This document shows, piece after piece, positions 30,001-36,000 of a stretch of 36,589 nucleotides of DNA. Source of the stretch: Candidatus Zixiibacteriota bacterium (GTDB taxonomy: Bacteria; Zixibacteria; MSB-5A5; GN15; FEB-12); assembly GCA_041742355.1 (NCBI GenBank), contig JBGSIV010000169.1, forward strand, positions 1 through 36,589, given 5' to 3'. A program made the position numbers. Positions within the stretch are counted from its first letter, which is position 1, and every line of letters starts with the position of its first letter.

Positions 30001-33000
30001 CCGCCGCCGCGATTCTCCTGGTAAGCCATTCCCCTGAAGGGGCCGAGCACATCCGCCACCTGCTCGTCGGCAGTCTCCTGACCGTTTCCCCGGCTGCCGT
30101 TCTGAAAACCGCCGCTGTGTACGCCGCGGTCGGCGCTGTCCACTGGTTCGCCCGGAGGCACTTCCTTGCCCTGACCTTCAACCATGGGGGCGGGGGAGTT
30201 CGGACTCGCCTGTGGGACTTTCTGTTCTATGCCACCTTTGCTGTGGTGGTAACCTCGTCGGTGAAGATCTGCGGCGTGCTGCTGGTTTTTATCTTCCTTG
30301 TGGTGCCCTCAGTTTTTGCGGCGCTCATTACCGACAGCATTGCCCGGCGGCTCATCTATGGCTGGATATTCGCGATCATCGGGACGGCGGCGGGGCTGGT
30401 CTTGTCCTTCTATCTGGACACGCCGACGGGGGCGACGATCGTGTGTACGTTCGGTCTGATGTTGCCCGGGGCGATGGTGATACGGCCTGGTCGTTGAGGG
30501 GACTCTGTCGGGTCTTCGGCTGACAGCCCCTGGCGCAGGAAATGCAATTTGTTAACGAATTGCTTGCCCCATTTGACTTTCGCCGCCGAATACCATATGT
30601 TCCGTCGTGCGGATATCAAGACTACAGGCCTTCTGGCACAGCACCATCACCCTCGGCACGCTCATTCTGGCCGACTGGTCTTCTGTCGCCGCCCAGGAAG
30701 CCGAGCGCCAGCTCTTCCGCACTGACCGGATCAACGCTCTCCTGTTTCTGCTGATCTTCTCCTCGGCTGTCCTCCTCTACACCCGCTGGGCCCGGCAGGG
30801 AAAACCCCTCTTTGTCCGCAAGATCGCCGGGCTGGATGCGCTGGAGGAAGCAGTCGGCCGCGCCACCGAGATGGGCCGCCCGGTCCTCTATATCCCCGGC
30901 ATTCTCGAACTCGATGATATCCAGACTATCGCCAGCATATCGATCCTCGGCCGAGTCGCCAAGGTGACCGCCCAATACGAGACCCCCCTCCATGTCCCGG
31001 TGCGTTACCCCCTCGTGCTGGCCGCCGGACAGGAGATTGTCGCCCAGGCGTATGCCGAGGCCGGACGGCCGGATGCCTACGATAAAGACATGGTCCGCTA
31101 CGTGGCCGGTGAGCAGTTCGCCTTCACTGCCAATGTAAACGGCTACATGGTCCGCGAGCGGCCGGCCACCAACATATATATGGGCGGTTTTTTTGCCGAA
31201 TCCCTCATCCTTGCCGAGACCGGCAACGCGGCCGGCTCGATCCAGATCGCCGGAACCGCCGAGGCGTCGCAGCTGCCGTTTTTTGTCGCCGCCTGCGACT
31301 ACACCCTCATGGGCGAGGAGCTCTACGCAGCGTCGGCTTATCTCTCCCACGAGCCGATTATGCTCGGTGGACTCAAAGGGCAGGACTTCGTAAAGATGCT
31401 GCTCATAATTGCCATCATCGTTGGCGTTCTGCTGACCGCTTTCGGGTTCGGCGAAACCTATCTCGAATGGTTCGAGTCAGTCTGAGGAACAGCCGGTAAC
31501 AGCCCATGAGAACAACCCTCCCCCTTACAGTCGCTTTCGTCACCGGCCTGATCTTTGTCGTCTCGTTCTTCTTCGCCGAGGACTCGATTATTGGCCAGGC
31601 TTCGGGGACCCTGCAGGTCTGGGTCTCGATCATCGGCGGCTTCACCCTTCTGCTCGGTGTCGTTTCGATTGTCCGGGTCAATTGGTCGGCCGTTTCGCGC
31701 CGCCGTCCCGGCTGGGTCTATCGTCTCTGCACCCTGGTTTCTGTCTTCGTGATGGCGATCCCGGCCCTCCTGCCGTCCTCGTGGTCCCCGCTCTTCGGAC
31801 GCGGCGAGGGTTCGGTGTACGACTGGCTCTTCCTCTACCTCGACAGCCCCATGATGGCCACCATGTTCGCCATGCTGGCCTTTTATATCGCTTCGGCCGC
31901 CTACCGGGCGTTCCGCGCCCGCAGCGGCGAGTCCACGGTCCTGTTGCTCACCGCCGTGATCGTCATGCTCTGGCGCGTCCCCATGGGCGAGGCCTTCCTG
32001 AACCTCTTCCCCGGCGACATTCCGCAGTGGCTCAACACGTACGTGATGCGCGGCGTCAATGTCGCCGTCCAGCGCGGCATCCTGATCGGCGCCGCTCTCG
32101 GCGCGGCTTCGATGTCCCTGCGCATCATCCTCGGTATCGAACGAACCTACATGGGGAAGGGCTGAGCCATGGCGTTCTGGACCAGAGTTGAAAAGATGGA
32201 TCGCCGCTGGATCTACCTCATGGTCATTATCGCGGTGATCATCCCCTTCATCATTCAGGCCAAGTTTCCGGTGAGCATCACCCAGGAGTCCCGCCTGCTG
32301 TACGAGTATGTGGAGGGGTTGCCCAACGGCAGTGTCGTTATGCTGGTTTTCGACTACTATCCCTCGACCATCGCCGAGTGTGAACCGATGACCCGCACCG
32401 CCCTGCACCACCTTTTCCGCAAGGACTGCAAGGTTATCACGCTCAGTAACATCCCCCTTGGCGGCCCCACGATGGCCGAATCGGTCACGCGCGAGATGGC
32501 CCAGTTGTACGGCAAGGTTTACGGCACCGATTTTGTCAACCTGGGCTACAAGGCCGACTACGTGGCCGTTCTCCGCGGCATGGGCTACTCGATCAAGGAC
32601 ATCTTCCCCGCCGACTACTCCGGCACGCCGCTGGATTCACTGCCCCTGATGCAGAAGGTCAAGAACTACGCCGATGTCGCCTTTATCTTCGAGGTCGCGG
32701 ACAACGCCACCGCCGACTACTGGGCCTCGATCGTCAACGCGCAGTTCGGCGTGCCAATGGGCTGCGGCACCACTGCCGTCAGCGCTCCCCGCTACTACGC
32801 GTTCGTCTCTTCCGGCCAGTTTGTCGGCCTCCTCGGCGGCATGAAGGGCGCGGCCGAGTACGAGATGCTCGTCGGCCACCCCGATATGGCTTTCCGGGGT
32901 ATGGATGCCCAGTCGCTCGTCCACCTGCTCATTATCGGCCTCGTCATGCTCGGCAACGTCAGTTTCTTCATCAGCCGCCGCAACCGGTGGAGGAGCACCC

Positions 33001-36000
33001 CATGACCGGCATGGAAATCTTCCAGATCTGGATTATCGCCTTCTTCACTGTGGCACTGCTGTCCTTCCTCTATAAGGACAACCCCCTTTACCGCTTGGCC
33101 GAACACATCTTCGCCGGCCTGTCGGCCGGCTACTATGTCGGCCTGGTCTGGCACGAGGTGATCCTGCGGCAGCTCTGGACCCCGCTCCAGTCGGGCGGAC
33201 ACTGGATGCTCCTCATCCCGCTCCTGCTCGGCACGCTTATGTTCGGCCGATTCTTCCCCAAGTATGCCTGGATCTCGCGCACGCCGCTGGCGTTCGTCAT
33301 GGCCGTAACCGCCGGTATCTTCCTGATCTCCCAGCTTCACGGCATGGTCCTCCCGCAGGTTAAGGACACTATGTCTCCGAGTTTCGAACTGGTGGTGGTC
33401 GACTCCACGGGGTACGACACCTTCCCCGACCAGCTCGTTATTGTCGATAGCATCGCCCCGGATTCGCCGCCGGTCCAATCAGGCAACCTGCTGCTGAGCA
33501 AGCGGGATGTTGCCCGCACCGGCGACAGCGTGACCATCAGCACGACTTTTACCGACCCCGAAATGCCTACCGTGGATCGCCTCGCGTTCACCCTCAAACT
33601 CCGTTTGCCCGACGACTTGACGCATAAAGCGCTCGTTCTGGCGGGCGGTCCGACCGCTCCGGGCGTACAAATTATTGACAATGGCGGCGGATCGTACACA
33701 GCCAGCTACACGTATGTTCCGGATACTCTCCGGCCCGTCGGCCCATACGACATCTCGTACTCCGTTTCCCGCGCCGAGCGGGAACTCGCCCTGAACATCC
33801 TGGTCCTCCTTGGCGTCATCTCCACTCTGATCTACTTCTACTTCTCCAAGGAGCACACCGGCGCGCTCGGTGTCGGCGCCCGCGTCGGCATCTGGTTCAT
33901 CATGATCGGCTTCGGCGCTCACTTCGGCTACACGGTCATGGGCCGCGTCTCCCTCCTTATAGGACGGGTGCAGTTCCTCATCGACGACTGGCTGGGCTCG
34001 TTCCCCCACATATTCTAACTCTGTTCGGAGATAGCGCTATGTCTCGGATGCGGCTGCCCCGTCATATTCTTCGAGTTGCGCCCATTATCATCGCGGGTTT
34101 CGTCGCACTCATGTTCGCCGGCTGCGGCTACGACGGCAAGGAGCCGCCGTACGATTGCGACCGGAACCCCGCCAACTTCCCGGAAGTGGCTGTCGACTTC
34201 CTCCGGAGCATCGAAGGCGGTTACCTGCATACTGCCGATGAGATCTCCGAACGCTTCTCGGCCATTTACACGGCCCACCCTTCTTTGCTCAGTGACAGGA
34301 CGTGGAATAATGTCACGCAGCGGCTCGGCATTCGCCTCCGGTACCGCGCCGACCGTCTCGTGCAGGATGGTCTGTTGCAATTTGCCCAGGCGGCCGACTA
34401 CTATGCGGTTGCGGCCCAGACTCACCCCACCGACAGCGCTCTTGCCGCGCAGGCCCGGCTGTTCTCCACGTGGCGCACAGCTGTCGCCGACTCGACTTTC
34501 GATATTCCGCGACTGGCCGCCCGTGAGGATCTCACGCCCGAAGTCGTCACATTCAAACTGGCGGCCCTCACCCGCTTCGCTCTGTGCAGCGACGCCCATC
34601 TCCAGTTCGCCCGGCAGTACCTCGCCGGGGCGCTCTTCCCCCCCGATATCATTGCTCATTTCAAGAGCAGCGGTGCGGCCGGCCTCTCTCCTGCCGACGG
34701 CGCCCTCCTCTGCGCCCTCGGTCTGATGGGCGCCGACATCGATACGGCCGTTGTCCGATTCCGTCAACCGGACATCGAGGTTTCCGCGGTGCGCGTCACG
34801 CCCACTGCTGCCGACAGTTTTCGCATCGAGATCTACTTCCTCCCGCGGGAACCGATCCCAGCCGATCTCGGCATCTCGCTTTGGGTCGAAACGCCGGATT
34901 CGGTACTTCCGGCCGACAAACAGCCCCGATTTCCCTTCGACTTCATGCCCACTCCTCCCACCTCTACGTGGCCGGCGGGGGAAGTTGCGGTCGCACTCCG
35001 GCACATTTCTTTTGGCTATCCTGTCTCCGCCGTGTTACTTGGATTGTATGATACGACAAGCGGCCGCGCCGTGTACCTGCCCTTCGATGGCCCCGGAGGG
35101 GATCGTGTCAGGATCCCGATTCCGCCCGACTCCGGCAGACCATGAGCGGGCGGTTCTGCTCAGCCGGATCGCCGCCAAGATAATGCTTGCGGAACCGCGG
35201 GGCGTGGCCTACCATTGTGCAGATTAGCTATGAGCAGGAATATTCGTGTCATAATTCCAGTCGCCGGGTCCGGCAGTCGCTTGCAGCCCCACACGCTTAC
35301 CCTTCCCAAAGCGCTGCTGCCGGTCGGGGGCAAACCCGCCCTCGCCCATGTCCTGGATCCGATCGCCGCCCTCGAACCCGACGAGGTCGTTTTTGTCGTT
35401 GGCCACCTCGGCGATCAGATCATGAACTGGGTCCGCGACAACTTCACTTTCAAAACCAGGTTTATTCCGCAGGAGAAACTGCTCGGACTGGGATACGCCC
35501 TGCACCTGGCGATGAAGGATCTCGATGACCGTCCGACCCTGATTATCCTCGGTGACACCGTGGTCGACTGCGACTACGAGGCGCTGATCAATACGGGCGA
35601 CTACGTTCTCGGCCTGCGAGCGGTGGACAATCCCCACCGTTTCGGCATAGCCGAACTCGACGGCAGCTATATCGTCGGCCTCGAGGAGAAGCCCGAGCAC
35701 CCGAAGACCAACCTGGCCCTCATCGGCCTGTACTATTTTGCCGAAGTCGGGCAGCTCAGGGCGGATCTTGCCAACCTTGTCCGCTCCGGCCGAACGACAA
35801 GCGGAGAAATCCAGTTTACCGATGCCCTGCACAGCATGATCGAGGCGGGCGTACGCTTCGCCCCCTTCGAGGTCTCCGGCTGGTTCGACTGCGGCAAGAA
35901 GGAGACGCTCCTGTCGTCCAATCGGGCGCTGCTCGAAAGTCAGCCGCAGCCGAAAGCCCCAGATGGGTCTGCCTTCGTGCCACCGGTCTACATCGCCCCG

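Follow-up and report, generated by a model that had tools for sequence, protein, structure and literature searches.

The four genes at 30607-34018 of the window, by which we mean the whole 36,589-nucleotide stretch of Candidatus Zixiibacteriota DNA analysed here, encode a four-protein membrane unit, so far unstudied, of which this genome has five diverged copies. We assign a probability of about 0.5 to the reading that this copy is one of five swappable modules of an ATP-driven machine, all of which share one ASKHA ATPase. On the present evidence the module and the ASKHA protein probably work together, and that the machine is an importer is a tentative proposal made by analogy.

A four-gene unit and its five copies

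Four co-directional ORFs were found in the window on the forward strand, as the preliminary description had it. A (30607-31485, 292 aa) is a DUF6754 protein (Pfam PF20539), B (31506-32165, 219 aa) is a polytopic membrane protein without family, C (32169-33005, 278 aa) is a bitopic protein without Pfam match, and D (32987-34018, 343 aa) is a second polytopic membrane protein without family. The genes are closely packed, with 20 nt between A and B, 3 nt between B and C, and a 19-nt overlap of C and D. Hydropathy analysis on a crude scale indicated two membrane helices each in A and C and four to six segments in B and D. A matched PF20539 with 400.2 bits (cut-off 27, E 4e-120) over profile positions 2-250 of 257, and the earlier statement that this is the sole Pfam family of the cassette at E<=1 was confirmed in that the other hits, on B and D, were all under their cut-offs. 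The NCBIfam search of the cassette genes gave nothing usable, and a literature search found no paper on the four-protein DUF6754 unit. Sequencing runs from three studies contained DNA near-identical to the window. Among the 40 differences listed for A, B and C, 38 were at third codon positions, as expected for purifying selection on these three genes.

A further gene, E (34039-35145, forward strand, 368 aa), lies directly downstream of D in 7/24 loci of the window's clade. Its product has a hydrophobic N-terminus followed by a Cys and no Pfam or NCBIfam family, and E, which probably encodes a lipoprotein, is a facultative fifth gene of the window's orthologue group.

The PF20539 profile matched at five places in the genome, and paralogues of A, B, C and D were found in the same order on the contigs C138, C245, C295 and C184 (tblastn, E 1e-17 to 1e-92), which means that the paralogy of the cassettes is far beyond chance and that the five-fold recurrence noted before is real. 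The cassettes on C245, C184 and C295 best matched the first, second and third set, respectively, in relatives that have three tandem sets on one contig, so we take the layout to be a triple array that contig ends have split up, together with two dispersed sets, the window's cassette and that on C138. Among 77 related loci from several phyla, A was followed by B, C and D for 101 of 115 A genes, while 12 were cut by locus ends and 2 were exceptions. This supports the view, already taken in the preliminary description, that A-B-C-D behave as a single inseparable gene unit.

DUF6754 was matched in all 81 sampled Zixibacteria genomes, with five matches in 56 of them, four in 16, six in 5, three in 3 and two in 1, and in 0/14 control genomes, in line with the claim that the cassette is phylum-wide and mostly kept five times. 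Across many other phyla the DUF6754 system is patchy, and in the sampled Zixibacteria it is universal. A tree of A took in four of the five own paralogues and left out the second A on C245 for its shortness. Three of the four grouped with orthologues from other Zixibacteria in separate clades with good support, so these copies are old, and the C138 copy formed a long, unplaced branch. Identity between paralogues within the genome was 45-58% for A, 36-45% for B and 29-36% for C.

A probable shared ATPase and its predicted contact with subunit A

The four products had been read as a transporter-like complex without an ATPase. The genome holds a single PF13941 gene (GlmL/MutL-type, ASKHA; C245:3709-5655, minus strand), and this gene adjoins a cassette of the tandem array in divergent orientation. 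Its product matched PF13941 with 423 bits over profile positions 1-450 of 450, and three stretches which we take to be the phosphate-1, phosphate-2 and adenosine motifs were invariant in 17/17 sequences. Its NCBIfam scores were 234.3 for GlmL (NF040745, cut-off 475), 216.9 for Or-4 (NF040744, cut-off 600) and 171.5 for glmL_fam (TIGR01319, cut-off 204), and the mutase E subunit (PF06368) had no match in this genome, which is 93.8% complete. A role as glutamate mutase helper was therefore rejected here. A 374-aa partner protein with a barrel-sandwich domain is encoded elsewhere in the genome; it had weak matches to lipoyl-type barrel-sandwich domains, also among Atlas clusters, and a weak RnfC_N match (E 0.0068; score 16.9 bits, cut-off 25.6).

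The ATPase gene was held by 21 of the 77 related loci, mostly with ATPase, partner and A-B-C-D following each other in this order on one strand. DUF6754 and PF13941 occurred together in 81/81 Zixibacteria, the ATPase being nearly always single against 2-6 DUF6754 matches. Analysis of 201 Planctomycetota showed both in 54, DUF6754 only in 2, PF13941 only in 3 and neither in 142, and one PF13941 was found in 4/5 genomes from other phyla, the small genome G084 having DUF6754 without it.

Complex prediction for the ATPase with residues 60-255 of the window's A gave a score of 0.62 (runs 0.60, 0.64 and 0.62), and the best of three controls gave 0.00. The pLDDT of the binding partner in the prediction was at least 79, and the runs shared at least 98% of contacts. 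When the tool was calibrated, 116 of 157 solved complexes and 2 of 215 mismatched pairs attained the contact mark, counts that hold only roughly for A and the ATPase because our own alignments were used. The predicted interface of A comprises residues 74-91, 123-125, 207-212 and 227-233, and an invariant Gly-Arg-x-Thr-Glu patch lies at 84-88. Conservation of at least 90% was found for 14/24 interface residues versus 56/172 in the rest of the A domain (one-sided Fisher p 0.014, with related rows), and the interface residues were kept in all five own A paralogues. The A domain is predicted, at the model's own confidence, to dock on the GlmL-type ATPase.

It could still be argued that A-D are a self-contained secondary transporter or channel without an ATPase, next to which the GlmL-type protein is an unrelated neighbour, since the window and C138 cassettes are far from the ATPase gene and PF13941 is missing in 2 of the 56 DUF6754-positive Planctomycetota and in one small genome. 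However, we consider this quite improbable given that both families were present in 54 Planctomycetota and one alone in 5, that other phyla have co-directional ATPase operons, that the contact was predicted at 0.62 against 0.00, and that A is the most conserved subunit though it would face the cytoplasm. The words "without an ATPase" have to be dropped on the strength of adjacency, co-occurrence and predicted contact taken together.

Proposed subunit roles and a tentative assignment to uptake

The N-terminus of A bears a weak hydrophobic helix, and membrane helices lie at about 39-63 and, towards the C-terminus, at about 250-278. The domain between them (about 72-248, model pLDDT 90.8) has a generic Rossmann-like fold, for which the fold search returned generic matches with no standout, and A had no match to B12-binding or other cofactor families. 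Positive-inside charge counting and the predicted contact with a cytoplasmic ATPase suggest that this domain faces the cytoplasm. C has membrane helices at 12-28 and 240-276, the latter followed by a basic tail, and between them a single-lobed Rossmann-like domain (about 37-237, model pLDDT 93.9), which by charge counting would face the periplasm. The fold search with C gave a flat list of generic Rossmann matches (top Z 9.9), among them one binding-protein lobe at Z 8.1. C matched no Pfam family and no PDB sequence, and its family, which is without a model, has 5481 representatives (50% identity) at E<=1e-3. The earlier proposal that the two bitopic subunits hold the substrate is therefore supported by half: it may hold for C, whose domain would face outward, and the domain of A is more likely a cytoplasmic docking surface.

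In B, one helix with an arginine-rich end is conserved, as is a motif at the C-terminus. No Pfam family was over cut-off in 60/60 members (TMD0_ABC appeared in 5/60, always under cut-off), B matched no PDB sequence, and neither B nor D matched transporter families. D has an insert of about 135 aa (around nt 33380-33790), which is absent from its closest orthologues (about 211 aa), and BLASTP against these orthologues splits into residues 6-143 and 269-343. The insert was covered by contigs of the sequencing runs X2, X3 and X4.

In the machine that we propose, five interchangeable A-B-C-D modules would serve a single cytoplasmic unit, the long GlmL/MutL-type ATPase with its 374-aa partner. A would span the membrane twice and offer its highly conserved Rossmann-like domain to the cytoplasm as the docking site for the shared ATPase, the Rossmann-like domain of C, which varies more, would lie in the periplasm, and B and D, the latter with a variable outward insert, would make up the polytopic core in the membrane. 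Changes that ATP drives in the ATPase may pass via the two helices of A to the B/D core, and the fast-diverging outward parts (C, the D insert and the N-terminal ectodomains of other A paralogues) may set the cargo of each module. The identities of 45-58% for A versus 29-36% for C are what one would expect of an A that works with a shared partner and a C that confers specificity. Gene content and order, copy number, co-occurrence and folds are what the data show; the contact of A with the ATPase is a prediction, and we infer the topology, the union of the four proteins in one complex, the direction and the cargo.

Uptake would be the likeliest job, by analogy with specificity modules that share one energising unit. 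The fuller proposal is likewise tentative: a new class of primary active transporter, in which a GlmL-family actin/Hsp70-fold ATPase with a barrel-sandwich partner powers uptake via exchangeable four-protein membrane modules, each with a periplasmic Rossmann-like receptor, and one motor serves 2-6 cargo-specific modules per cell. To our knowledge, an ASKHA ATPase has not been described as the driver of any transporter. Gene neighbours lack a consistent cargo clue: of the 77 loci, 7 have a TonB-dependent receptor, 3 have ExbB and 2 have ExbD, for the most part in kin, and conservation is also lacking for the upstream ZnuA/ZnuB pair of the window.

The variable outward and conserved inward parts, the convergence of several modules on one cytoplasmic unit and the predicted contact of A with the ATPase would also suit transmembrane sensors, in which C, the D insert and the A ectodomains bind signals as the outward domains and the cytoplasmic domain of A switches the ASKHA protein and its partner as output, without transport. 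We hold this to be unlikely, because four conserved membrane subunits, two of them polytopic, are many for a sensor and A-D, the ATPase and the partner have no known output domain of the DNA-binding, kinase or cyclase kind. About as improbable is an envelope machine for the export, insertion or anchoring of surface material such as glycan, lipid or protein, with the ATPase pushing cargo outward or keeping the modules in position. It would fit the N-terminal ectodomains, FN3 among them, that many A paralogues bear, the sugar-nucleotidyl-transferase-like gene that always follows the window's orthologue group and a capsule-assembly Wzi-like neighbour in one locus, but synteny with the transferase and with MetK does not extend beyond one orthologue group in one phylum, and the conserved set has no glycosyltransferase, flippase or secretion family.

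If the shared-ATPase reading is true, an ATPase fold with no known part in powering transport would drive membrane work in a considerable share of the uncultured bacteria and in some archaea, and a single motor would serve several exchangeable four-protein modules. One Pfam DUF and three large model-less families (C alone with its 5481 representatives) would gain a role, and thousands of genes named after a B12-enzyme helper would be reassigned. The finding is relevant to metabolic reconstructions of Zixibacteria, as all sampled genomes carry several copies, and the A domain with the ATPase is a directly testable pair with named interface residues.

Comparison with known systems

The window's A is a full-length member of PF20539, but that catalogue entry is without function and accounts for A alone, the other three subunits having no family. 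The shared ATPase resembles GlmL/MutL and Or-4 (PF13941, NF040745, NF040744) in that it matches PF13941 end to end and keeps the ASKHA motifs. It differs in being about 130-170 aa longer, in scoring below the cut-offs, and in being linked to membrane modules and not to a B12 enzyme, the mutase E subunit being absent.

PMC4682846 describes MutL as a chaperone for the reactivation of glutamate mutase, and in glycerol dehydratase reactivase an Hsp70-like ATPase subunit is paired with a small subunit under a subunit-swap model (PMC7674605). The B12-enzyme reactivases for glycerol and diol dehydratase have an Hsp70-like ATPase on a small alpha/beta partner, and in our system the predicted contact puts an ASKHA protein on the Rossmann-like domain of A. 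These parallels, together with the GlmL/MutL family membership of the ATPase, would fit a membrane-bound, cofactor-holding complex with a reactivase-type chaperone, the Rossmann-like domain of A holding a cofactor that the GlmL-type ATPase exchanges or releases in the manner of B12-enzyme reactivases. However, the ATPase is under all GlmL-type cut-offs, A had no B12-binding or other cofactor family and generic fold matches of which none was prominent, and five modules with diverging outward parts would be odd for an enzyme, which leaves this explanation with little probability. With no sequence match to solved reactivases, no B12 enzyme and a membrane-embedded partner here, the resemblance does not go beyond the working principle.

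The partner protein recalls RnfC and NqrA of the Rnf/Nqr complexes through its weak RnfC_N and lipoyl-type barrel-sandwich matches, but these are below cut-off (16.9 against 25.6), no Fe-S or flavin family was found, and B and D had no sequence match to the Rnf/Nqr membrane subunits. Searches at E<=1 gave no ABC_tran or permease family in A-E and no DctP/TctC, DctQM or TctAB family of TRAP or TTT transporters in the cassette, and no EcfA, EcfA', EcfT or S component was found in the cassette or the ATPase operon.

ECF transporters and shared-ATPase ABC importers use several specificity modules per energising unit, and the resemblance to ECF transporters is confined to this logic of sharing. Our system is like them in having 2-6 diverged modules per genome against one cytoplasmic ATPase, with a conserved docking surface and variable outward parts, and differs from them in that no ABC ATPase, EcfT or S-component family was found: the ATPase has an actin/Hsp70 fold, and each module consists of four proteins.

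Four-gene unit in the window and its conservation

The cassette occupies 30607-34018 on the forward strand and consists of four tightly packed genes, A (292 aa), B (219 aa, polytopic), C (278 aa, with a membrane helix at either end) and D (343 aa, polytopic), separated by gaps of 20 and 3 nt and with an overlap of C and D. A is a full-length member of DUF6754 (PF20539, E 4e-120, 400 bits), and in Pfam and NCBIfam searches of A to D this was the sole family reaching the cut-off. Sequence searches of A, B and C against the PDB gave no match. A fifth gene, E (34039-35145, forward strand), starts 20 nt after D and codes for a probable lipoprotein without family; it stands immediately after D in 7 of the 24 loci that make up the window's clade, where it may serve as an accessory to this module type alone.

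One genome per species was scanned, and 77 loci were obtained from Zixibacteria, Eisenbacteria, Coatesbacteria, Cloacimonadota, WOR-3, Edwardsbacteria, Stahlbacteria, Bacillota, Planctomycetota and Myxococcota. Profiles built from our genome's own paralogues detected 115 A genes in these loci, and in 101 cases B, C and D came after A in this order, while 12 were cut by the end of the locus. The two exceptions were an orphan A (L085:9650-10783) that lacks B, C and D over a distance of 10 kb and an extra A directly 5' of a complete set (L068:8465-9553). Median gaps for A-B, B-C and C-D were 12, 2 and -1 nt, with overlaps overstated because ORF starts were set at the longest possible position. 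The C family, for which Pfam has no model, comprised 5481 representatives at 50% identity with E<=1e-3, and 1597 with E<=1e-30.

The window's D carries a beta-type-rich insert of about 135 aa (33380-33790) between hydrophobic segments 4 and 5, which its closest orthologues (about 211 aa) do not have. The insert is not an assembly error, because run contigs from three studies span it; near-identical DNA was present in runs of three studies, with no RNA run among the holders listed, and 38 of the 40 listed differences in A to C fell on third codon positions. D is also longer on contigs C295 (277 aa) and C184 (269 aa) of the same genome, so additions of outward domains seem to concentrate in this loop.

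Around the cassette, at least 14 Zixibacteria-type loci (among L012-L034) share the order A-B-C-D, optionally E, a nucleotidyl-transferase with a left-handed beta-helix end and MetK, and 35215-36589 of the window is the nucleotidyl-transferase/MetK side of this order. Directly upstream (27636-30497) lie genes for a porin-like protein (weak BBP2 match), a ZnuA-type binding protein and an ABC-3 permease, with no ABC ATPase gene beside them. Orthologous loci do not share these neighbours, and ZnuA/ZnuB was therefore rejected as a clue to the cargo. Farther away, 15972-19436 encodes an unusual 1154-aa fusion of a peptidase-MA domain, PD40 beta-propeller repeats and an Omp85 barrel.

Five copies and their age

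PF20539 matched at five places in this genome, and tblastn showed that paralogues of B, C and D adjoin A on contigs C138, C245, C295 and C184 in identical gene order, so the five same-order sets of the preliminary description were confirmed by two kinds of search. Identity among these paralogues was highest for A (45-58%) and lowest for C (29-36%). Several relatives have three sets in tandem on a single contig (e.g., L070, L054 and L087), and the best matches of C and D placed the C245, C184 and C295 sets at positions 1, 2 and 3 of this array, which means that our genome carries the triple array once, split at contig ends, and two further sets that are dispersed, those of the window and of C138. 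The three short contigs (loci L007, L010 and L009, respectively) are probably genomic neighbours; joined, they give the ATPase operon and then the three tandem cassettes, an arrangement also seen in L070 and L054.

DUF6754 was present in all 81 sampled Zixibacteria genomes and in none of 14 control genomes; E. coli does not have the system. The number of matches per Zixibacteria genome was 5 in 56 genomes, 4 in 16, 6 in 5, 3 in 3 and 2 in 1. We then built a quick FastTree of 118 A domains without bootstraps, from which the second A on C245 was left out as too short. The window's A fell within a 25-row clade (support 99), the C245 A within a 13-row clade (96) that itself lies inside a 19-row clade (97), and the C295 A within a 17-row clade (99). 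Each of these clades holds orthologues from other Zixibacteria-type genomes, and A sequences of other phyla nest among the clades of our own paralogues; the C138 A is a long branch to which none of the loci contributes a near relative. The sampled Zixibacteria thus set a minimum age for the duplications, which may be older, or transfer may have been involved.

A single ATPase and its predicted contact with A

The preliminary description had read the cassette as a transporter-like complex without an ATPase, and this part did not hold, given that the genome's single PF13941 protein adjoins a cassette, co-occurs tightly with DUF6754 and is predicted to contact A. Exactly one PF13941 match was found in our genome, at C245:3709-5655 on the minus strand, in a gene divergent from the first cassette of the array. 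Its operon also encodes a soluble 374-aa partner that has a KOW-like end and weakly matches lipoyl and RnfC_N barrel-sandwich domains. Between the two genes lies that of a 250-aa protein (L007:2957-3709, minus strand), which carries a signal peptide and, C-terminally, a membrane anchor, is without family and was seen in Zixibacteria-type loci only (4 of 77). The Atlas look-up of the partner returned its own unnamed family only, and a PDB sequence search gave no match for the ATPase or the partner.

The ATPase was present in 21 of the 77 loci, mostly with ATPase, partner and A-B-C-D on the same strand. All 81 sampled Zixibacteria genomes have PF13941, nearly always as a single protein of about 620 aa, and four of five cassette-bearing genomes from other phyla have one. 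In Planctomycetota the system is patchy, with about a quarter of the sample carrying it. Among 201 genomes of this phylum, a set that includes kin, so that the genomes are not independent, DUF6754 was found in 56 and PF13941 over the cut-off in 57; 54 genomes have both and 142 have neither, and of the rest 2 carry only DUF6754 and 3 only PF13941 (one of these a weak match, one a fragment). The nucleotide motifs of the ATPase were invariant in 17 of 17 sequences, and these sequences were 62-92% identical across phyla. The protein scored below the cut-offs of GlmL, Or-4 and glmL_fam, and no glutamate mutase E subunit was found in our genome, so it is not the mutase helper that its name suggests.

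Complex prediction was performed with the A domain of the window's unlinked cassette and this single ATPase. The score was 0.62 (runs 0.60, 0.64 and 0.62) and the best of three controls scored 0.00; in the complex model, partner pLDDT was at least 79 and the runs agreed in at least 98% of contacts. In the calibration, which is rough here as our own alignments were used, 116 of 157 solved complexes reached the mark, as did 2 of 215 mismatched pairs. As a prediction, the model supports binding of the A domain to the ATPase. The predicted interface on A comprises residues 74-91, 123-125, 207-212 and 227-233, where 14 of 24 residues are at least 90% conserved versus 56 of 172 elsewhere in the domain, and the five A paralogues are almost identical at these positions. 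Within the interface, residues 84-88 form an invariant patch.

A was earlier described as poorly modelled, which is superseded by a model with pLDDT 90.8; that of C reached 93.9 (alignments of 71 and 74 sequences, respectively). As modelled, both proteins have a membrane helix, a helix plus six strand-helix units and a long final membrane helix. Fold searches with Foldseek and VIA-align gave flat lists of Rossmann-like proteins for both, including SDRs, RCK/KTN domains, eIF2B-type domains and halves of GT-B enzymes, with none outstanding (C: best E 3.7e-4, TM 0.2-0.3, top Z 9.9; A: no match at E<=1e-3, top Z 10.3). We also considered A/C and B/D as ancient duplicates and rejected this, as hhalign gave a probability of at most 2% for all pairs with both paralogue-only and deep alignments, and BLASTP found no match. 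The fold of A and C is generic, so their pseudo-symmetry is unproven despite the common order of secondary structure and 14 targets common to their top-50 fold lists.

Basic residues follow the first membrane helix of A, and other A paralogues have signal peptides and FN3 ectodomains before this helix, so the A domain should be cytoplasmic. C has conserved arginines before its first helix and a basic tail after the last, so its domain should be periplasmic.

Proposed mechanism and comparison with known systems

We propose that one cytoplasmic unit of ATPase and partner would serve several membrane modules. A would be the adaptor, turning its conserved inner face toward the common ATPase; B and D would form the membrane core, and C, the D insert and the A ectodomains would be the diverging outer parts. 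ATP turnover could then pry or shift the Rossmann-like domain of A and so produce a cycle in the module.

As the role of the modules we tentatively favour uptake, by analogy: a single motor with a choice of receptors would suit it, and TonB-type genes neighbour a few of the 77 loci (a TonB-dependent receptor in 7, ExbB in 3, ExbD in 2). The same arrangement may instead serve to sense signals or to export, or the modules may be a cofactor-holding complex. In Eisenbacteria-type loci (L037, L051, L060, L081 and kin) the ATPase-partner-module operon is flanked on one side by a glycine-cleavage P-protein gene and on the other by a lipoate-protein ligase and a TonB-dependent receptor, and since the partner has a lipoyl-like domain, a link to lipoylation may exist there. 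As clues to the cargo, TonB-dependent receptor, lipoate ligase and GcvP were rejected, since they come from 7-8 loci of a single kin group and are not general, and so were ExbB/ExbD, found in 2-3 loci.

By the family tests run, the unit does not belong with ABC, TRAP/TTT or ECF systems; as to Rnf/Nqr, B and D have no match and the partner's RnfC_N match is below the cut-off. A literature search gave no paper on DUF6754 and, among the entries listed, nothing relevant on PF13941, PF20539, GlmL, ASKHA plus transporter, or Zixibacteria; the MutL in PMC5167688 is only the unrelated DNA-repair protein. A belongs to a family without function, and the ATPase falls within the PF13941 superfamily but outside GlmL proper. 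The ATP-driven shift of the A domain is proposed by analogy with reactivases: the GlmL family is presented as chaperone-like reactivases in PMC4682846, and for glycerol dehydratase reactivase PMC7674605 gives a swap model in which an Hsp70-like ATPase subunit is paired with a small one.
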